IMG/VR virus record: IMGVR_UViG_3300014039_000035
Reading direction: 5' to 3' (one strand)
Source of the DNA: an uncultured virus (IMG/VR IMGVR_UViG_3300014039_000035)
Taxonomy: Duplodnaviria > Heunggongvirae > Uroviricota > Caudoviricetes
DNA length: 64,000 nt
In this document: one piece after another, positions 13,254 to 41,707 of the stretch
Position numbering within the stretch: the stretch's first letter is position 1
How the letters are laid out: each line of letters starts with the position of its first letter
Translations under genes and position numbers: made by a program
Notes under the pieces: generated by a model
The model's input: only the letters and a program-made list of their open reading frames with translations
Database searches by the model: none
Told to the model about the DNA's origin: nothing

Positions 13254-13436
13254 CGAGCGGCGCGCAAGGGACTCGAACCCTCCGGGGGACCTGAAATCCC
13301 CACGCGCCGGAGCGGCTGCCGAGGATGGGGCTATGAAATTTACGCCCGGTACCCCGCTCGGATCGGAGGGCAGAATTCCTTCGGGGAAACCCTCCTCACT
13401 CATCCACGGCCTGACCAAGACGGTGTGCGCCGCCCG
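13254..13436 (-). ncRNA. about 183-nt tRNA-like structured leader RNA
   Basis: T-arm GAGGG-TTCGAGT-CCCTT; 3' GCGCGCCGCTCG pairs with 5' CGGGCGGCGCAC. Confidence 0.55.
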
Positions 13437-14288: not shown

Positions 14289-14523
14289 ACCCCTATCTCC
14301 CCGTAACCGCACACAACATACTCGCCTTCCCCGGTAAGAACACCGAGGCTCGTCTGCGTGAGGGCGTCTATCGTGCCCCTCCGACCCGTCGCCAGAAGCA
14401 GGACCTCCTGCCCCAGACGAAGACTTTCCTTCGCTACCATAACGACCCGCCCAAGCCTTCAAAGACCGTGCCGGAAACACGAATGTATCTTTATACACTT
14501 AAAAATTTATGACCACTATTGAT

Positions 14524-15024
14524 AATCAATTACTTACATTTTTCACCCTTTTCAGTGTAGTTACACTACATTGAAACTACACTGGCGCAACTGACGGAGA
14601 GTGAATGAATTACAGCCGTCCAGTGTAGTTGTGTAGTCAGTGTAGGGCATCTCTAACTTTTTTCTCGTCTGTGTGCGTTCCTATAATATATACGCAGGAG
14701 AGTTTTTTAATGTTACGTGTGTATATAACTACATTACTACACTACATCTTCATAATTTACCACAAATCAATGCGTTATACCTATGTAGTTTGCGGTGATT
14801 TCTTATGCGATAGAGATTTATCGGCTTCAAAACTACATTGTGCCATTTTTTGGCACAAGCTCCCTATGGGTAAGGGCTGAAAATATCGAAAAAAAATTTT
14901 TTCAGGGTCACACCACCGCACCCTCGGTTTTCCTTGAAAACCCCCGCAACCCTTTGAATATCAAATAGTTACAGCCCTATTACGATGAAATGAATCTTGT
15001 AACTACTTGAAAATCAATGAGTTA
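14524..15024. other. putative replication origin or genome-end region with iterons and IHF-like sites
   Basis: 10 copies of ACTACA/TGTAGT in 14556-14837; four WATCAA-N4-TTA matches; lies between divergent arms. Confidence 0.6.
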
Positions 15025-15345
15025 ATGTTTCAACTTTTGAAACATTTTGAAAAAGCGTTTTAAGGCCGTTTTTAGCGCGTTTCACCCCAAAAATGATACG
15101 GAGTACCACTCAAGGTGTAAACGTGTATTACAGGCTAAAATAAAACGTTTTCTTGTCAAGTCTGGTATTTGTTTGCGGTGTGCCTACGTGCGTGTATGTG
15201 TGCCTATATATTGCGTTACCGTGAGTCTTAAAGTTTTTCGGAGTCGTTGTGTATCAAATTTCAAAGTTCGTCAAAAATAAAAGTGCCTTGGAGTGCTTTC
15301 TATTGCGGTTTGAACTAAAAATTTTGATAAATTGCAAGAAAAAAA

Positions 15346-15376
15346 TTTGCAATTACAGGAATTTGTAATATATTTG
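15346..15376 (+). promoter_or_regulatory. early promoter (-33 TTTG, -7 TATATTTG)
   Basis: Consensus Bacteroides promoter with 19-nt spacer. Confidence 0.8.
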
Positions 15377-15422
15377 CAATGTCAACAAAAAAGGAAGGCA
15401 CCGAAGAGGCTTCCAGTTGGCA

Positions 15423-15433
15423 GCTCTTTGACA
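15423..15433 (+). promoter_or_regulatory. boxA-like antitermination signal
   Basis: GCTCTTTGACA about 45 nt after the promoter. Confidence 0.6.
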
Positions 15434-15662
15434 ATACTGAGCACCGTGCGGAGAATGTAAGGGAGTGCTGTGCCTGTGCGTGGACGAAATGTCTTTTAGC
15501 GAAACGCTTTGAGCGTACAAATAGAGTAGGCCCTTGGGTTTTCCGAACCACACGGGAAATCTGACAATTTGTCAGTATGTCACGATGTCAGGAGGCGTAA
15601 GCAAACTAATACTAGCGGTCGGCTGGCACGGGTGGAGGCAGAGGCCTCTGGTGGCATTAATT

Positions 15663-15710
15663 AGGGGGCAAAGGTTTTTTTTTATGGTGGTTCAATTCCA
15701 CCAGCCCTTT
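15663..15710 (+). ncRNA. tRNA-minihelix-like element 1
   Basis: AGGGGGC..15 nt..TGGTGG-TTCAATT-CCACCA-GCCCTTT. Confidence 0.55.
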
Positions 15711-15738
15711 CCAAAGTTTAACAATTAAAAAAAAAGTT

Positions 15739-16089
15739 ATGAACAAAGCTAATTTCAGTGCAAAGGCACTCAAGGAATTCAGAACTCTTGTCAACAGAGA
15801 ACACAAGTCACTCTCTTCATGTCTCAGGACCATTAGGGATAATTGGGCCATGGTTGAATCACTTGCCGAGGCGGACGGTCTTGGCTTGGAGGATGTCACT
15901 CCAAAATATATTGTGAATCACCTTCACAACGACAATTACAACCGTGCCGGTGTGCTCGGTCGTATGGTCAAAGTCGAGGGCTCTGAGGATAAGGAGTTTC
16001 GGGCTTGGGAGACCTGGACACCGGCAAGGGCTCTGGACTACTTAAGGAGAGCCTCGGCTTGCCACTTCAGGGAGTTATGTAAGAAATAA
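15739..16089 (+). CDS. first early protein, unknown function
   Basis: 116 aa ORF with A-rich initiation region. Confidence 0.75.
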   Translation: MNKANFSAKALKEFRTLVNREHKSLSSCLRTIRDNWAMVESLAEADGLGLEDVTPKYIVNHLHNDNYNRAGVLGRMVKVEGSEDKEFRAWETWTPARALDYLRRASACHFRELCKK

Positions 16090-16093
16090 TAAT

Positions 16094-16138
16094 AGCCCCG
16101 CATGGTGCGTTGTGCCGGATCGTTTCCGGCACGGGGCT
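16094..16138 (+). ncRNA. tRNA-minihelix-like element 2
   Basis: AGCCCCG..12 nt..TGCCGG-ATCGTTT-CCGGCA-CGGGGCT. Confidence 0.55.
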
Positions 16139-16166
16139 CGAACAACTTTAAAAAAACATTTTAGAA

Positions 16167-16406
16167 ATGAGAATTAGAATTAGCGACAAACGCCTCCGTA
16201 ATGGGGAGTTGAAATTGGATGTAACCAATTTTTGCACGGACGGCATTGTAATGGTTTTCAGCCTTGACGGTGAACGGTATTTTACCTATTTTGTGGTACC
16301 CGCTGTAAAAAACGGTATGGTACAAAGAGCCTTCCGCAACGCGGGGGCTAACTCTTGGATGGTAACGATGGACGCAAAATATTTGACAGGACTATTTAGC
16401 GAGTAG
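16167..16406 (+). CDS. hypothetical early protein
   Basis: 79 aa ORF, A-rich leader. Confidence 0.65.
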   Translation: MRIRISDKRLRNGELKLDVTNFCTDGIVMVFSLDGERYFTYFVVPAVKNGMVQRAFRNAGANSWMVTMDAKYLTGLFSE

Positions 16407-16561
16407 TGTTATGCTGAACGGTAAAAAAGCGACAAAGTCGCTATATAAGAGCGAGTTCCATAGCCTTTATGAGGCGGTGTGCGAGGCTCAGACTATCCTC
16501 GATGACGTCCGAATACTTGCGGATACGGGCAAATGCCTGCGTGTGATCAGGCGGTATAAAT

Positions 16562-16606
16562 AGCCGTGCTTTGGGGTTCGGGGAGGATCGAGGCCTCCCC
16601 ACGGCT
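16562..16606 (+). ncRNA. tRNA-minihelix-like element 3
   Basis: AGCCGTG..12 nt..GGGAGG-ATCGAGG-CCTCCC-CACGGCT. Confidence 0.55.
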
Positions 16607-16630
16607 CGAATAACATTAACTAACAGAATT

Positions 16631-19600
16631 ATGATGAAAAGAAAAGAGGCGGCTGAACGGCTGCAAGTGGTGTACAACACCCTCGAAGTGCGTAAAGTGA
16701 AGTACGCAACTATTTACAGGAGAATCTTTAGGCAGGGAGACTGCTGGAGACTTATCGGATATGCTCACGATTACACGGTATAACATTATGGAAGTAACGA
16801 CAATGAAATGGAGGGTTGCCGAGGTGCATTGCCTTTTCACCGGTGAGCAATACGTGTTCACGAATAGTTTTTTTGGACTGTTGGCGGTTGCCGAAAGGTC
16901 GGACGAGGATAGCAACTTGTTTACGGTCATATATGGCAATGAGAACGCTGCCGGAGGTTCTTTAGGCGGTGACGTGTGCGCCATTTTGGCAGAACGGTTC
17001 ATTCGCAAGAACGAACAACGCTATTTGCAAAAGGTGGTAACGTTCAAGCGCAAGAACGAGGATTTGCGCAAATATTATGTTGATTGTGAGGCAAAGAGAT
17101 TTTAACTAACAAAAAACGCTGCGCTATCGGCGACACGGGCGAATGAAATGAAAATACTTTTTAGAACAAAAGACGATGCCCTCAGGGCGATGAAAGAGGT
17201 CGGCAAGACCGGCTATCTGTCAGAGGCTGACCACAGAAGCGGCCTCGATATCGACTATGACAGCTTCGGAGGCGACTTCTGTTGGTCGGGCGAGGTTCAG
17301 GCCTACAGAACTGATGATGATGACATCTTCGCCTGGTGGGAGTAAAACAAAAAAATAGATGCATATGAAACAGAAGTTTGAAAGGAGAATGTCGTTCGAT
17401 ATCGTTGCGGTGTCGGACGAGGCGATGAGTTTTGCCAAGGCGAAGAAATTCGCAAAAGAGCACGGGGGCAGGCTACCCGACCAGACGGAGGCGGCTGAAA
17501 TACTGAAGAATGCCGAGCACCCTGAATTGTCGCCTGAAAAAAGTTACGGCTACTGGTGTGAGTTCCGTCCTTATTACAAAATGGGCAGCGAAAGCGGGAT
17601 CGGGGCTTTCCACGGCGGTTATTTGGCGGCTTTTAGTTATGATACATGGAAGGACAGAAGATGGTGGTGCAACGCCATTGTAGTTAAGGATGTGGAGGAG
17701 TAGGCTGTATGGAGACGATAGTAATAAATGTAAAAGCACCTTACACGGTCAACGACTTTCGTGGACACAATCCGTTGGAGACATTCAACAACTTGAGGGC
17801 TGCGATCGGGATATATAGCGGCATAAGCTCGCCACAAATGGACGGACAGGGGCGCATCAAGCAACCAAGATTGAATTTCGCTTTGTGGCAGTCCAAAGAT
17901 AAGCCCGAACGGTGGATGATGGCGGTCGGGCAACGCAGGGGGTTCAAGGCAGTAACGTTTACTTTCGTATGAGATTGCCGACCGAGAACGTGGCACGTAT
18001 TTCGTGCGAGGGTCTTGGCGAGTTCCGGGCCTTCTACAGGCATGGTGCGCTGTGGGAGGCTTGGATCAAGCCTGACGGGAAAGTTGAATTAGAATGTAAG
18101 GAGAAGGCCGGCGTCCTGCGGGATGAGGCCGTAAAACGAATGGAAAATGAACGAGAATAAATGGTTGGTCTTGGCTTATTATCCGAGTCTCGACCGCATT
18201 GTTAGAAAGGTGTTTGACAATCTGGCAGACGCACAGGCCGAATTTCGTGCCATTGTGACGGATTTTCGGAGGATGTATTGGGGAGATAACAACGAGGACG
18301 GAACAAGGCGCGCGGGGGCTTTCGTGTCGTTCCGTATGTACATCCCCGAATTTACGGGAACGGCATACGTAGAAATTGTGAAGATATGAGTACTATCTGG
18401 AAAAGACGTTTGGCGTGGTGGGCAATAATAACTTTGCCCATCGTGCTTGTGGCGATAAAGTGGCACGGCAACGGCCTTATGTTGCTCGGTTTGATATGGG
18501 TGTTTAATCTTAATTACTTGGAGGACAGGTTGAATGAAGAGAGAGATAATAGCAGTGAATGTTAGCACGGGGGAAAAGCGGATTTATCCGGATACTGGAG
18601 TCTGTGCCGCTGATTTGGGAACGACACGGCAGAATATAATGCAGCAGCTGAACCGCAACGGCAATGTAGGCTCGTGGCGTCTGTATGACACGCAGGAGAC
18701 GCTGCAAAGACGTGTTTATGAACTGCAAAGGCTGATTAAGGAGGTTGAATCGTTATGAGAACTTATGTGAAGTTTGACGGCAAGGATGCCGTGCCGGAAT
18801 GGGTTGAGGATTGCTTCGAGTGTATAAGCGATCCTGCGCTGGGTGTCTGGGCTTTCTTCTGCGGTGGTTGCTTGTGGGAGGCGGTTCTTTCTGAGGATAA
18901 AACTGAAATGACATTCCATGACATGAACGGATGGAATTTCTATCAGGAACTTTTATTTGATATACGGGCTTATGCGGATGGTCTGGACGAGTTGCGTATG
19001 GAATATAATATCATTGATGATAGGACAATTAAAGTACGATTCTATTATGATAATTGATTTGATTTTAGACCGCAGGGCGGGCGAAGAGTATGACCCAAGG
19101 CTATTCTATGCCGAGGTGTCCGAATACGGTGAGATATGGCCGGATCTGGCCTATCCGATAGCACGGGCGATGGACGGTGGCGAGGAGTCTGACGTCAAGG
19201 CGGCTCTTTGCGACTACGTGGAGGGCAACGGCTACCCTGAGGATATAGCCGAATATGTTAACAGTGTAAATTGGTTGCGATATGAAAAAGATATGGCTTA
19301 GGCTTGGCGTGACGATAGAGGCAGACGCTAAGGAGACGGTGGCGATATTGGCTGGTGATGGGAAAGTTCTTGCGGAGGTTATCCGCAAGAACGGGTTCGC
19401 TTTAATGGGGAATAGTTGTATTCCGGCAGAATCGAATAAAGAGTTAGGCATCGATAGTAACATTGTAATTGAATTGAATTAACGATGAAGAATATAATAG
19501 TTGTCAGAAAGACTTTTTACCCACCTCAAATTAAGGTCAGGGAGGGTTGTTGGCCGGTTGTGCAACTCGTGTCAAATAAAGGAAGTCGTGACATTGAGGA

Positions 19601-21697: not shown

Positions 21698-21967
21698 ATG
21701 GCAAGTTACAAGAAAGAGTTCCTGGAATGGAAAAAACAGTACAAGGAAGACGAGTTCTACGACAGTCTTCCCGGTGTTGACTTGAAGATTGGCGACAAGG
21801 TGATGTTCACCAATTCGTCAGGGATAACGTTCGGGCCGTATGAGATTCTGGCCTTTCAGACACCCGATAAATATGGGCGGTGCGTCTTCATAGACCACGA
21901 CAGCTATTGGTTTCCGGCAACTTTAGAGTCATTGAGGCCATGTGGAAAAGAAAGAGCCGGAAGATAG
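21698..21967 (+). CDS. hypothetical SH3-like protein
   Basis: LKIGDKVMFTN motif. Confidence 0.55.
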   Translation: MASYKKEFLEWKKQYKEDEFYDSLPGVDLKIGDKVMFTNSSGITFGPYEILAFQTPDKYGRCVFIDHDSYWFPATLESLRPCGKERAGR

Positions 21968-22722
21968 ACATCAAGCCGATAGGCGATTCAAGGCCGTATG
22001 TCTTGTGGCGAAGGGTTTCCACGCAGGAGCAGGAGGTCTCTGGCCTTGGCTTGGAGGCGCAGTTGACCATAGCGAAGATGTTCATGGCAAGGGAGCCTGT
22101 GGCGGTGTTCACGGATGTCCATTCAGGAACGAAGTTGAAGGAGTGTGACCAGCTGTGGGAGGCGATACGCTACTGCAAGGCAAATGATTACGTCCTTTGC
22201 ATAGCGAAGAGTGACCGTCTGAGATCAGTGTCTGAGGCCTTGGACATTATAGACGCGATGGGCGAGCGCAATGTTGTGATATGCGATTTGCCTACTTGCG
22301 ACAGGTTTGTGCTGACCATCATGTTCGCGGTTTGGGAACGTCAGGCGCAGATGATACAGATAAACACACGTCTTGCGTTGGCGGAGCGTCAGAGACAGAT
22401 TGAGGTCAACGGCGGATTTTTCTCGAAGTCCGGTCGCTGGGTGAAGAAACTTGGCAGTCCAAAGGGTTATATGCCACGTCAGGCGATAGTTGCGGCAAAT
22501 GAGGCGTCAGCGGCCAAGGCGGTCGAATGGCGCAAGGAGTCACCTCTTTTCGCTTGGGTCGAGTTGCAGGTTTTCAAGCACCGGGCGAGGGTTGACATTC
22601 TGGCGGATGCGCAGGAACTTTACCGCAAGCATCCGGAGAAGTACGGTACACGCAACGGATGTCCGCTGAGTAAGGGTATATTAAGCAAGTGGATAAAGAT
22701 AATACAATTAAGCAATGACTAA
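21940..22722 (+). CDS. serine recombinase (resolvase family)
   Basis: RVSTQEQ..SGLGLEAQ, D..SG, K.DRL, ER..I..NT..AL. Confidence 0.9.
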   Translation: MWKRKSRKIDIKPIGDSRPYVLWRRVSTQEQEVSGLGLEAQLTIAKMFMAREPVAVFTDVHSGTKLKECDQLWEAIRYCKANDYVLCIAKSDRLRSVSEALDIIDAMGERNVVICDLPTCDRFVLTIMFAVWERQAQMIQINTRLALAERQRQIEVNGGFFSKSGRWVKKLGSPKGYMPRQAIVAANEASAAKAVEWRKESPLFAWVELQVFKHRARVDILADAQELYRKHPEKYGTRNGCPLSKGILSKWIKIIQLSND

Positions 22723-23017: not shown

Positions 23018-23279
23018 TGTGTAGGTTATTCAAGGTTTAAGCCACGGTCCGGCACGAGGACTGGAATGGTGAAGTGTACAGCATATCGATAGAATGTGAC
23101 TGCTGGGCAAATAATGAAGAAGAAGCAAAAAATCTTGTCGAGGAATATCCCTTCGATACATACAAAGGTATGGATTTTGTAGGTGTTACGGTGGACACCG
23201 TGAAATTCGTGTCGGACTCGTTCGAGGACAATTACCCTCCAGCGATGACGAACTGGGAATATACGGTTTAAGAAAAAAC

Positions 23280-23391
23280 TCCCCGAAGAGCCGGATAGGA
23301 TGCTCCGGCAACGAAGGATGAAGACGCCCTGTGACACACTTCATCCGAAGCGTAGGACGGCAGTGTGGTTCGATTCCACACCGGGGAGCCA
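23280..23391 (+). ncRNA. tRNA-like RNA A (CCA-encoded, non-canonical core)
   Basis: Acceptor TCCCCG/CGGGGA-G-CCA, T-arm TGTGG-TTCGATT-CCACA, 6-bp D-like stem, 8-bp third stem. Confidence 0.7.
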
Positions 23392-23465
23392 CTCAAAGTC
23401 TTGGCAGACTTTCTTGGGGTCCTGAGAAAACCAACTGAAAAGTGTAGCGGTGTGAATCGCGAACA

Positions 23466-23570
23466 ATGCCGGGAGAAGGCCGTCACGGGACGGCAGGGAA
23501 TACGTGAATATAGCCAAAAACACAATCACGATGAATGTTTGAAAAGGCGGTTCGACTCCGCGCCCGGCAT
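23466..23570 (+). ncRNA. tRNA-like RNA B
   Basis: ATGCCGGG/CCCGGCAT closing stem, GCCGTC/GACGGC hairpin, CGTGA/TCACG hairpin, GCGG-TTCGACT-CCGC T-arm. Confidence 0.6.
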
Positions 23571-23595
23571 CAAGTTTATTGTTTAATTTATAGTT

Positions 23596-24894: not shown

Positions 24895-26535
24895 ATGATT
24901 ATTGACAGCAAATATACAAAAGTGTTCGTCTCCGATGATATAACCCGTTTGAAATATAACGAGTTACACGATGTTGCTGTCAATATCAGAGACCATAAGA
25001 ACAAGGTATCTGAATTCGTTTCCCATAACCTCCTAAAATATTTGGATTATTCCAATCTGACGTTTATGAAGGAAATGAGAACTGAATTCAAAAACCAAGT
25101 GGGTTCTTCGTTTGATGCTCAACTCTATACACAAGTACTGACTTGTTATCAAAACAAATTTGATAACATAAGAAAAAATCTTACTTTTGAAAAAGTCACT
25201 TATTCCCATTGTGAACTCTACAAAAGGAGCATCAAGATAAACAAGAAAGGTGATTTCAAAAAAGTAGTTAACAAACACGAAACCACAAGGTTGTCCATCT
25301 GTTTAAGTTACCTTGCACGATACGGGAATGATAATACCGTTGAATATATTAATTCTCAGATGCCTACTTGTGATGATAATAAGAAAGGCTATTACCAATC
25401 CATTTTGGATTGCTGCTCCAAGTTTGGATTCGAGCGATTGATGGGATTGGCGATGCAGAAACGTCAGCGAGCAATAGACAGATACAAGGATAACCCCATC
25501 GAATTCAAATCCCTTACATTCAGTGGCAGAAGCCGTAAAAAGAAAATCCTCGATTGGAACAAGAACTACAATTCTGAGATTAACGCATTCGTATCATTGT
25601 CAGGATTTGATAGGAAATCCATGGATATCCCCGTTAAATTTGCAAAGGATTACCACGGCTCGATGGGTGATTATTTCAAGGCGAATCCTGATTACGAATA
25701 CACCATTGTATTCAATGAACGAAAGAAATCGGTATCCATCAATCTTTGTAAGGACGGTGAAAGGTTTATCCCGGAGGCGGGTAATAACCTTATCGGGATT
25801 GACGTAAATTGCAAGCATAACTTATTCTCATTATCAGATAACTCTACGTATGATTATGACCGTCAGTTGGTTAATGATTATTGTAGGTTAGCGTTGGATA
25901 TAGATAAACGCAAGAAAAAGGATAAGGAGTACCAACCGGGAAAGAGAACCCAATGGAAACTGGATACCCTCAAAAAGAAAATGGACAAATCCGAGCAGAA
26001 CCTCATTGCCTTGATGTGCAAACAATTGGCATCAGAGGGATATAACCACATAGTGATGGAGGATTTGGATAATGGATTCGGAAAATGCTTTGTTAAGGAT
26101 AAGGATAATGAGGATATCAACTATAACCGCAAGGTCAAATTTCTTGGATTGTCAAGCCTCAAGAATGAGGTGGAGCATATTGCGAGGAACTACGGAATAG
26201 CGTTGTCCACGGTGCAAGCGAGTTACACGTCCAAGATGTGCCCAATATGCGGCTGTATCGAGGACGAGAACCGTCCCGACCAAGAGACATTCTGTTGCGT
26301 TGAATGTGGTCATTCAAGCAATGCTGATTTCAATGCGTCGGTGAATATAAGGAACAGAGTCAGCGAAGCCGTGCTTCGAGATAGGCTCTTAAAACAAAAG
26401 GATAATGGTGCCTACGAACCTAAAAAGATGAAAAGAGAAAAGGTTAAGGAGGTATTGTTATCGTTTCGGAAACACCTGCAAAAGGCAGGGAGTGAATGTA
26501 TTCAAACGGAGTTAAACACTTTTGAATATGTTTAA
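24895..26535 (+). CDS. tnpB: TnpB-family RNA-guided endonuclease (546 aa)
   Basis: RuvC GIDVN / VMEDL / NADFNA, YTSKMCPICG...CVECG zinc ribbon. Confidence 0.93.
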   Translation: MIIDSKYTKVFVSDDITRLKYNELHDVAVNIRDHKNKVSEFVSHNLLKYLDYSNLTFMKEMRTEFKNQVGSSFDAQLYTQVLTCYQNKFDNIRKNLTFEKVTYSHCELYKRSIKINKKGDFKKVVNKHETTRLSICLSYLARYGNDNTVEYINSQMPTCDDNKKGYYQSILDCCSKFGFERLMGLAMQKRQRAIDRYKDNPIEFKSLTFSGRSRKKKILDWNKNYNSEINAFVSLSGFDRKSMDIPVKFAKDYHGSMGDYFKANPDYEYTIVFNERKKSVSINLCKDGERFIPEAGNNLIGIDVNCKHNLFSLSDNSTYDYDRQLVNDYCRLALDIDKRKKKDKEYQPGKRTQWKLDTLKKKMDKSEQNLIALMCKQLASEGYNHIVMEDLDNGFGKCFVKDKDNEDINYNRKVKFLGLSSLKNEVEHIARNYGIALSTVQASYTSKMCPICGCIEDENRPDQETFCCVECGHSSNADFNASVNIRNRVSEAVLRDRLLKQKDNGAYEPKKMKREKVKEVLLSFRKHLQKAGSECIQTELNTFEYV

Positions 26536-40047: not shown

Positions 40048-40659
40048 CTATAAGTCTTGAAATTTATATGTCGATTTGCCTCCTCCGAGGTCCTGTTTCC
40101 TTATCATCACGTTCTCGACGGGGAATATTTTCGTTCCCGCCCGCTCCATTGTCTTGCACTGGTCAAGCACGTCCTTAAGCGACTGTGACCCGGTGATGAA
40201 CTTAACTCTGTCCCCGTCCTTTATCTGGACCATCACAACGTATTTGTCCATGTTCTGCTTCGACCGGTCATGGATGTCCCTTGTTCTGATGTTCGACTCG
40301 AAGTCAAGAACCGTCAGCGGCATATTGATTATGTCGGTCAGAGGTACCTGCTTGACGTCGAATATCCGTTTCCCGTCCCGGTCCCTCTGGCTTATCATCG
40401 TTATGCCTTTGTCAGCGAATCCCATTTTCTTCCCTGTTATTTTTCTCCAAAGGTTCTTGCAGTCCCCGTGCTCGCACCAACCCTTGTAGCTGTCCAGTAT
40501 CTGTCTTTTTCTCTTTCGGCTTTTGACGCGCCCCATCCCCGCTGCGAAGCGTTTCTTTATGCCCTTGCGAAGCCTCACATCCTCCTTCGAGAACACATAT
40601 CCGAGGAAATCGATGCCTCGGCCCGCGTTGACGCTTCCGTCTGTGCCGTTTCTTCTCAT
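40048..40659 (-). CDS. DGR reverse transcriptase part 3 (motif 7 and thumb) fused in frame to an accessory domain with a possible internal ATG at 40425
   Basis: RGIDFLGY, LRK.IK, SY.GW....D..NLW; then MGFADKG...IINMPLTVLDFE. Confidence 0.8.
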   Translation of the reverse strand: MRRNGTDGSVNAGRGIDFLGYVFSKEDVRLRKGIKKRFAAGMGRVKSRKRKRQILDSYKGWCEHGDCKNLWRKITGKKMGFADKGITMISQRDRDGKRIFDVKQVPLTDIINMPLTVLDFESNIRTRDIHDRSKQNMDKYVVMVQIKDGDRVKFITGSQSLKDVLDQCKTMERAGTKIFPVENVMIRKQDLGGGKSTYKFQDL

Positions 40660-40915
40660 AGTGGAGAATCGGTGCGTAGTAACTGTTTGCCTTTACCGTC
40701 ATCCCGCGCTCCTCCGCCAAGCGGTCGTAGGCGTTCAGGAGGAACCTCGCCTCTCCCTTTGTCCTTGCCAGCATGACCATGTCGTCGCAATTCCGCTCCA
40801 GCTTCACCCCGTACCTTTCTGTGAGGATGTGGTCTATCTCCATGTGGGCGAGGTTGCCAATCATCCCGCTTATGTACGCGCCAATTCGCACGCCCCGCCT
40901 TCTTCTCTCTTTCAT
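40412..40915 (-). CDS. DGR reverse transcriptase part 2 (palm motifs 4-6, NCDD)
   Basis: GVRIGAYISGMIGNL...IDH...RNCDDMVM...GMTVK. Confidence 0.8.
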   Translation of the reverse strand: MKERRRRGVRIGAYISGMIGNLAHMEIDHILTERYGVKLERNCDDMVMLARTKGEARFLLNAYDRLAEERGMTVKANSYYAPILHYEKKRHRRKRQRGPRHRFPRICVLEGGCEASQGHKETLRSGDGARQKPKEKKTDTGQLQGLVRARGLQEPLEKNNREENGIR

Positions 40916-41492
40916 CTTCAATCTCCTTTTCAATGTCCTCCCCGCAATAGTAGTCGAGCACGCAGATCTCCATTAGCCGGATGAAACGCTCGTCCTTGAA
41001 ATGATGCCTGAGAACCCTCAGCATATACCCGTGATCCAAACCTTGATAATACTTCTTGCAGTCTGACTTCGCAGTCCACGTGTGGTCCGGATAACGCCTG
41101 AGCAGACGCTTCATGCGCCTAACCCCGTAGAGGTTGCCCCGTCCCTTGATGCAGCTGGAAGTGTCCGCTATCATCTTCCCGTTGATGACCGGCTCTATCA
41201 CCTGCATTATGGCGTGGCTCATTATCTTCCACGGCATATAGTCCTCATCATCGAGACGCCTCATCTTCCCGCTGTCTGCCTTGCGGTTGACCACGCGGCT
41301 GCGATGCTCCGGGAAATCAAGGTTGAGAATCATTCCCCTCAATCTCTCCACGGTCGCGTCAATGTCCGCGTTCACAGCCCGGATGTCGCTCCGTCTTTTC
41401 GCCTTGCCGCCCCTCTGTGAGTTCTTTATGGCAAGACGTAGATTGCCATCATCCGCTATCCGCTCCAAAATAAAACCTTTCTTTTTCGTCAT
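40656..41492 (-). CDS. DGR reverse transcriptase part 1 (motifs 1-3)
   Basis: NL..A...Q.GK, GK.R, HAIMQVIEP, SCIKGRG, KSDCKKYY..LDH. Confidence 0.85.
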   Translation of the reverse strand: MTKKKGFILERIADDGNLRLAIKNSQRGGKAKRRSDIRAVNADIDATVERLRGMILNLDFPEHRSRVVNRKADSGKMRRLDDEDYMPWKIMSHAIMQVIEPVINGKMIADTSSCIKGRGNLYGVRRMKRLLRRYPDHTWTAKSDCKKYYQGLDHGYMLRVLRHHFKDERFIRLMEICVLDYYCGEDIEKEIEDEREKKAGRANWRVHKRDDWQPRPHGDRPHPHRKVRGEAGAELRRHGHAGKDKGRGEVPPERLRPLGGGARDDGKGKQLLRTDSPL

Positions 41493-41707
41493 ACTTTCAT
41501 CAATTATCAAAACCTGCATAGTTTGACTGCCCGGAACGTTCGAGACCTTGCGGCCCTACATTAGCCCCGCTCGCGACCGACACAAAGGGCCGCTCTCCCG
41601 CATTCGAGATGTTCTGACTCTCCGGCGCGACCTGCCACCGGGGTCAAGGCTGAGGGGATTCGCTGCCCCGTAGCTATCGGGGATGACGATGACAGGATTG
41701 TATGTAT

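Follow-up and report, generated by a model that had tools for sequence, protein, structure and literature searches.

The window analyzed here covers positions 1-64,000 of a virus record of 66,465 bases. It encodes a primase, a helicase, a major head protein, a tape measure protein and a split reverse transcriptase, the last spread over several ORFs at 40048-41519 on the minus strand. Three small folds, referred to below as elements 1 to 3, sit where the GC skew turns, at the head of a long plus-strand run of small genes that have no PHROG or Pfam matches. GenBank phages gave no match to the region 15300-17200. The features at the head of this operon are as follows, with loci of relatives given as L numbers.

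15346-15376, plus strand: candidate promoter of the Bacteroidota type (TTTG, 19 nt, TAnnTTTG), a regular-expression match that heads the operon
15423-15433, plus strand: boxA-like antitermination motif in the leader, kept in L002, L106, L107, L113, L110 and L166
15436-15662, plus strand: leader, conserved in L002, L106 and L107
15663-15713, plus strand: element 1, a half-tRNA with orthologues in L002, L106-L111, L115 and L166; predicted +1 at G15664, T-loop at 15691-15697, U73 at 15710, encoded CCA at 15711-15713
15739-16089, plus strand: first operon gene, 116 aa, with 34 homologues
16094-16141, plus strand: element 2, a half-tRNA with compensatory changes relative to L106, in a gap that holds a pistol ribozyme in four relatives; predicted +1 at G16095, U73 at 16138, tail CGA
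16167-16406, plus strand: 79-aa gene with homologues in L002 and L106
16411-16563, plus strand: 50-aa gene with a TAG stop that runs into element 3; 56-aa homologues in L002 and L073
16562-16609, plus strand: element 3, a half-tRNA with orthologues in L002, L073 and L106, the weakest fold of the three; predicted +1 at G16563, U73 at 16606, tail CGA
16631-16783, plus strand: 50-aa gene 3′ of element 3, with a homologue in L106 and absent from L002 and L073

The motif at 15423-15433, which resembles a boxA antitermination site, was not found in L108, L109, L115, L097 and L103, the further loci in which it was sought. The plus-strand region 15346-15662 holds the candidate host-type promoter, a hairpin, the boxA-like motif and a possible multibranch RNA, and the leader itself (15436-15662) is probably structured. 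Its consensus fold contains 40 pairs, 1 of them with a double change, and was rejected as an established structure because this covariation is too low to call. Distant relatives (L108-L110) have a longer leader with a CGAAATG core in common. The candidate promoter matches the Bacteroidota consensus as described in part of PMC7366714, and its -7 box is also present in L002, L106, L107, L113 and L166; from this match we infer a Bacteroidota host, and gene content together with the host-type promoter suggests that the transcript is early. Homologues of the first operon gene, whose unannotated 116-aa product matches neither PHROG nor Pfam, anchored our positional comparisons. Element 3 directly adjoins the next gene in L002 and L073, with no homologue of 16631-16783 between them, and most of the later gaps in the operon are closed. 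The run of small genes also includes a DNA invertase or serine recombinase-like gene (21940-22722, plus strand) that occurs in G002 and G003 as well, and a transposase-family ORF of 546 aa (24895-26535, plus strand) lies in a low-GC island with an AT-rich stretch upstream.

The initial annotation described three intergenic folds of common geometry at 15663-15710, 16094-16138 and 16562-16606, and this geometry is confirmed. Each consists of a 7-pair outer stem, which in element 1 includes 2 G-U pairs, and a 6-pair stem closed by GG-(T/A)TC(G/A)NNN-CC, with linkers of 15, 12 and 12 nt and distances of 28, 28 and 24 nt to the next ATG. The term intergenic is less apt, since element 1 lies within a long leader rather than between two clear genes, and element 3 begins within the TAG of ORF 16411-16563, sharing two bases with it, so that this element is not wholly intergenic. 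A strict geometric scan of the whole genome, allowing linkers of up to 30 nt and requiring at least 12 stacked pairs, gave 4 matches (elements 1 to 3 and one at 13255-13309 on the minus strand), whereas 100 dinucleotide shuffles averaged 0.27 and never exceeded 2. Folded as single sequences, only element 2 scores strongly (z -3.16), against -1.68 for element 1 and -0.66 for element 3, which thus folds no better than its own shuffles. Three further folds resembling the top half of a tRNA are present in the window.

13255-13309, minus strand: half-tRNA 20 nt before the primase gene, with a CTC tail (G-CUC)
23279-23391, plus strand: tRNA top half with a 77-nt hairpin insert, ending in G-CCA (z -3.15)
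23466-23573, plus strand: tRNA top half with a 72-nt insert, ending in U-CAA 25 nt before an ATG (z -2.52)

The last two form a tandem pair of larger tRNA shells (23279-23573) in which inserts replace the D and anticodon arms, and neither has an Rfam match; other tRNA shells with expanded middles occur in the relatives G002-G005. A covariance model of the three-way fold (R1) added no three-way element in the window to the set from the geometric scan.

None of the three elements is a tRNA gene. The 12- to 15-nt linkers leave no cloverleaf with D and anticodon arms, ARAGORN called 0 tRNA genes in the window, and no Rfam family, tRNA included, reached its gathering score there; between 14000 and 33000 Rfam gave two chance-level matches (E 2.4 and 2.6), neither on an element. 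They also do not belong to the promoter-containing sequence repeats described for T4-like phages as PeSL cassettes (PMC2839356 and PMC4122927, as far as these portray them), because the three folds share shape rather than sequence, no repeat family joins them, and no sigma70-like site lies inside any of them.

Function in transcription was a second concern. The initial annotation had named ordinary terminators as an outcome that would count against it, but the terminator scan of 14500-17500 placed each of its 4 terminator-like sites outside the elements, and the sequence 3′ of the elements is A-rich rather than U-rich. A related alternative is that the elements act in cis as antiterminator or pause RNAs together with the boxA-like site, for which the put RNA of phage HK022, a cis-acting antiterminator, offers a comparison, or that they are attenuators. 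Their clustering just after the promoter and the boxA-like motif would fit such a role, as would the closing of most later operon gaps. We nevertheless regard it as very improbable, since three more copies lie far from the promoter at 15346-15376, and neither the tRNA-like tail nor the replacement by a ribozyme described below would be explained.

The 13 pairs of each element are better read as the 12-bp stack of a tRNA plus a pair between positions -1 and 73. Counted from the T-loop, each element in the window has 12 stacked positions, then a discriminator able to pair with base -1, and then a C, giving tails of U-CCA, U-CGA and U-CGA for elements 1, 2 and 3. A T-arm with T-loop motif stacked on an acceptor-like stem, together about 12 bp, is therefore present in all three, with A rather than U at position 54 in elements 2 and 3. 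Only element 1 encodes a full CCA, while C74 is found in all three. Among 22 elements from the window and its relatives (obtained from 32 rows by adding 3 and excluding 13: the 4 at pistol gaps, 4 that nearly duplicate others, and 5 in which the loop size differs or the fold is uncertain), C74 is present in 21 and A76 in 20, whereas position 75 is free (G7, C6, T5, A4) and position 73 varies (T9, G6, A6, C1). For comparison, C accounts for 52 of the 440 bases just downstream of these elements (12%). The single miss, in L110, is a register error and reads G-CUA. In a wider set of 34 that includes elements found by pattern, C74 is present in 29 and a C one base early in the other 5.

True tRNA genes show the same tail. 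Those in the phage contigs we fetched carry C74 in 31 of 32 cases and C75 in 2 of 32, a tally that leaves out 11 of 43 calls with no T-loop recognized by the regular expression. In the Bacteroidaceae genome G025, a stand-in for the phage host and not the known host itself, the corresponding counts are 32/32 for C74, 4/32 for C75 and 2/32 for CCA (30 of 49 loci used, L133-L162, with 6 rows left out). Genes for tRNA in G025 and in phage contigs (G009, G020) thus encode C74 nearly always and C75 rarely, and our literature search found no description of such a C74-without-C75 tail rule. Selection of C74 as a means of blocking RNase Z was also considered, but dropped as a specific claim because the true tRNA genes of the lineage carry the same C74 and G025 has RNase Z as well as RNase E/G; no RNase J scored above the cut-off in that genome.

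The linker, which the initial annotation called one-sided, has the lengths given there, but it is not featureless. GG occurs at linker positions 2-8 in 13 of 14 short linkers, rows that are partly related to each other, against a shuffle mean of 6.1, and 0 of 10000 shuffles reached this count. The D-loop of tRNA likewise carries GG.

Comparison with relatives indicates that pairing, rather than sequence, has been maintained. The claim that the stems differ in sequence yet stay paired is borne out by compensatory changes between orthologues, and a repeat search confirmed that the three folds are not DNA repeats of one another. Compared with its versions in L106 and L113, which end in CCA, element 2 shows changes on both sides at 5 of 13 pairs, with 0 broken; element 1 differs from its L002 orthologue by two double changes in the T-stem, and element 3 from that in L106 by one C-G to U-G change. 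In a set of 15 three-way elements, 150 of 150 cells pair, compared with 76.7% when shuffled and 38-61% when slid, and 7 of 10 pairs covary. Because these 15 were selected for their fit to the fold, comparison of orthologues is the cleaner test. The architecture upstream of the first gene changes more freely. It is a three-way fold in the window, L002 and L166, a four-way fold with an extra anticodon-like hairpin in L106 and L107, and a straight T-loop hairpin in L108-L111 and L115, but every version keeps the T-loop and about 12 stacked positions. The kept features, namely T-loop, 12-bp stack and tail, are in our alignments those that RNase P is described to read; its 12-bp ruler and its hairpin substrates are treated in PMC11143913, in the part available. 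A repeated GAACGGC motif precedes the straight-hairpin versions (L108-L111, L115 and L103:19870-19920) within long structured leaders.

These comparisons bear on whether the folds could be decayed tRNA genes, attachment-site remnants or PeSL-like recombination cassettes with no present RNA function. The L106 and L107 versions do resemble tRNAs minus the D-stem, and the loss of the gene beside element 3 in L002 and L073 breaks at the element's tail. The compensatory changes with no broken pairs are disfavoring covariation for a remnant, however, and on the sense strand G-U pairs outnumber A-C mismatches by 24 to 3. As the three folds are not DNA repeats of each other and neither ARAGORN nor Rfam calls a tRNA in the window, we find this origin exceedingly doubtful.

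Across 13 distinct loci the gap of element 2 holds a half-tRNA in 8, a pistol ribozyme in 4 and is missing in 1. Half-tRNAs are found in the window (with near-copies L001 and L105), L002, L106, L113, L110 and L166, and the 8 also include L111 and L112, where a 12-bp hairpin has an atypical loop and a CUA tail. Pistol ribozymes lie directly 3′ of the first-gene stop in L108 (with its duplicate L116), L109, L114 and L115, and score 53-57 bits against a cut-off of 34.5. Hairpins at these four loci had at first sight been candidates for odd minihelices lacking C74, a reading we rejected, as they are the P3 arms of the pistol ribozymes. The pistol would presumably cut some 18 nt ahead of the next ATG, closer to the 3′ than to the 5′ end of the mimics. 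The half-tRNA in L166 is flanked by homologues of both genes that flank the L108 pistol (E 4e-11 and 1e-17). In a tree of 12 proteins, which omits L166 and the fragments L113 and L114, pistol-bearing L109 and hairpin-bearing L112 are sisters (98/95), implying at least 2 changes at this gap. The exchange is thus seen at one gap and with 4 related pistol loci. Element 2 is dispensable, as L107 lacks any gap behind the first gene.

A further observation concerns how one structure might give rise to the other. The hairpin at L111:599-629 resembles the pistol P3 arm at L109:1542-1574 and L115:5401-5433, a likeness equaled by 8 and 4 of 2000 shuffles, respectively, with 17 pairs tried. This is a hint that one of them arose from the other in place.

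Folds that resemble the top half of a tRNA, and a pistol ribozyme in the same gap of relatives, suggest that the folds are likely to be cut marks for host tRNA-trimming enzymes. We consider it probable that the elements mark the places where host RNase P cuts a polycistronic, probably early transcript, probably with 3′ trimming in addition. The initial annotation proposed that the phage cuts or stabilizes its early mRNA through tRNA mimicry, and the cutting part of that proposal gains comparative support from the 12-bp ruler, the T-loop, the tRNA-like tail, the compensatory changes and the pistol replacement. In such a scheme, the host-type promoter at 15346-15376 would drive one long RNA. RNase P would hold the T-loop, aided by the linker GG as it is by the D-loop, and would measure 12 pairs, while GGU in its L15 loop would pair with N73-C74. 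The RNase P RNA of G025 retains L15 GGU, and for the B. subtilis enzyme the C74 pair accounts for a rate difference of over 100-fold, according to PMC1874595. Cuts are predicted before G15664, G16095 and G16563, and each downstream piece would begin with a 12-bp stem that perhaps shields it. Cutting would divide the first genes among separate messages, each with its own 5′ end, and at element 1 it would sever the leader 15436-15662 from the first gene. A possible purpose is to give the first few genes separate lifetimes and translation settings and to release them from the long leader. The gaps would then be cut places, with a ribozyme doing the work in some lineages and host tRNA-processing enzymes in the remainder.

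Alternatively, the host tRNA 3′-end machinery may also trim after N73 or C74, which would free a stub of 44-50 nt and leave a message starting 24-28 nt before the ATG. In B. subtilis, CCA blocks RNase Z, as reported in PMC1874595, so element 1 would be spared a 3′ cut. If stubs are freed, they might themselves be the product, acting as tRNA decoys that soak up host anti-phage tRNases, synthetases, the CCA enzyme or EF-Tu. Decoys near a promoter would likely be abundant, element 1 and the fold at 23279-23391 end in an encoded CCA, and larger tRNA shells exist here and in relatives. We judge this quite unlikely, given that the elements have no anticodon loop, their acceptor sequences and discriminator vary freely, and the copies are single, placed in gene gaps and in one case replaced by a pistol ribozyme; decoys would, besides, still require the cuts of the RNase P reading. 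The decoy claim of the initial annotation therefore fares poorly: the D and anticodon arms in the middle of the fold vary freely or are missing in orthologues, and a ribozyme can take its place.

Several observations weigh against cutting by RNase P, among them the incomplete CCA and the A54 of elements 2 and 3, the early C in 5 of the wider set of 34, and the dispensability of element 2. With 40-nt flanks, moreover, nearest-neighbor calculations favor alternative structures by some 4-5 kcal/mol in elements 2 and 3 and in element 1 of L002, leaving acceptor pairing probabilities of 0.00-0.04, and the tRNA-like fold dominates only with 8-nt upstream flanks. In the cell, though, ribosomes would cover the 40-nt flanks, which are coding sequence, and tertiary contacts are not part of the model. 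In addition, the stop codon of the gene before element 3 ends on the predicted +1 base, so that a cut there would leave a stop-less upstream message. An upstream stop extending to +1 is seen in 8 of 34 rows; three of the 8 are orthologues and most were found by a pattern that itself starts with TAG. Some t-elements of plant mitochondria are likewise cut inside a reading frame (nad6, ccmC), as noted in part of PMC1920247, and the stop overlap of element 3 may therefore be a cost or a feature rather than a disproof.

If the fold were left intact, the stop-codon problem would not arise. The elements could then be uncut structural elements that serve as nuclease roadblocks or keep an A-rich ribosome-loading stretch unstructured, their tRNA look being a reused stable fold. 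All of them lie 20-32 nt before an ATG and are followed by an A/U-rich stretch, and Bacteroidota ribosomes are described, in part of PMC7366714, as loading on A-rich leaders without a Shine-Dalgarno sequence. A roadblock, however, needs neither a 12-bp length nor C74 nor the linker GG, and would not be swapped for a self-cleaving ribozyme, making this explanation unlikely in our estimation.

The proposal that the elements are RNase P cut marks invites comparison with several known systems. The early RNase III sites of phage T7 are structured marks between early genes, as the elements would be, but they are long duplexes and only the elements have a T-loop and tail. Hairpin substrates of RNase P share with the elements an acceptor stem plus T stem-loop, the 12-bp ruler and a 3′ tail, which pairs with L15 in the substrates and may do so in the elements, most of which lack a full CCA; these substrates are synthetic or are precursors of single small RNAs, and none has been described as a repeated gene-boundary mark. 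Close to the elements are also the t-elements of plant mitochondria (Forner et al. 2007, PMC1920247), which are likewise tRNA-like folds with a T-arm motif, reduced in some cases to acceptor-like stem-loops, and which mark mRNA ends for RNase P or RNase Z. On structure, the elements qualify as putative processing signals of this type. The t-elements belong to an organelle and have mapped ends, while the phage elements have predicted ends, are minimal, are repeated along one operon and are exchanged with a ribozyme. Theta ribozymes, as presented in part of PMC10879173, are RNA elements of gut Bacteroidota phages that act around tRNA processing, where tRNA genes mostly lack CCA; they are catalytic and trim real tRNAs, whereas here tRNA fragments would serve mRNA cutting. 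The same genomic niche is occupied by pistol (RF02679), twister and hammerhead ribozymes near phage genes (PMC6765202, in part), which have been proposed, but not shown, to split polycistronic transcripts and whose purpose is there treated as an open question. No ribozyme family matches the elements, whose cleavage would depend on a host enzyme that leaves a 5′ phosphate in place of the 5′ hydroxyl left by a ribozyme.

A broader possibility, to which we would give about even chances, is that Bacteroidota phages run a mitochondrion-like tRNA punctuation, in which the cut at a gene boundary can be supplied interchangeably by minimal tRNA mimics, tuned to the C74-only tRNA tail of the host, or by self-cleaving ribozymes. 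Our literature search, which did not extend to subscription papers or to the supplements of PMC5737381, found no paper on such punctuation in phages, and the main text of PMC5737381, in the part covered, mentions tRNA only for GOLLD and ROOL. As a pistol ribozyme and a putative host-enzyme target are swapped between the same two genes, the message-cutting reading is directly testable. If it is true, many orphan ribozymes near phage genes would gain a job, stop-codon cuts would turn off the upstream gene and protect the downstream one, the natural substrates of RNase P would extend to repeated mRNA punctuation in viruses, and 45-nt parts would become available for operon splitting in gut Bacteroides. 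Separately, the unexplained C74-only tail of Bacteroidaceae tRNAs (32/32 genes in one genome) bears on how tRNA 3′ ends are finished.

The complete relatives G002 and G003 gave no match in the strict scan and have only variant folds, read by eye, and no ribozyme was detected in the stretches of these genomes that were scanned. In GTDB, 1 of 16 pattern matches (L124) is the fold and resembles the phage element of G016, the remainder being tRNAs or chance matches. A search of 121 Bacteroidales genomes with covariance model R1, a weak search in which 49 candidates were scored per genome, gave 2 matches (L170 and L171), both of which we read as lying among phage-like genes. Within these pattern and model searches, the fold appears to be rare in bacterial genomes. 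A pattern scan of IMG/VR returned 39 stretches, of which 19 hold the fold at the match and the others tRNAs or nothing. Beyond three close relatives, the fold is found in about 10 phage groups that are otherwise little related and that share, where compared, at most a few HNH, dUTPase-like or methylase matches with this genome. In G020, a twister ribozyme is found about 360 bases upstream of the element. Similarly, a sub-threshold hammerhead match (L170:1937-2013, minus strand) is located about 1 kb upstream of a half-tRNA on the same strand, and a type-P3 twister (L094:1760-1840, minus strand) lies upstream of another, also on the same strand.
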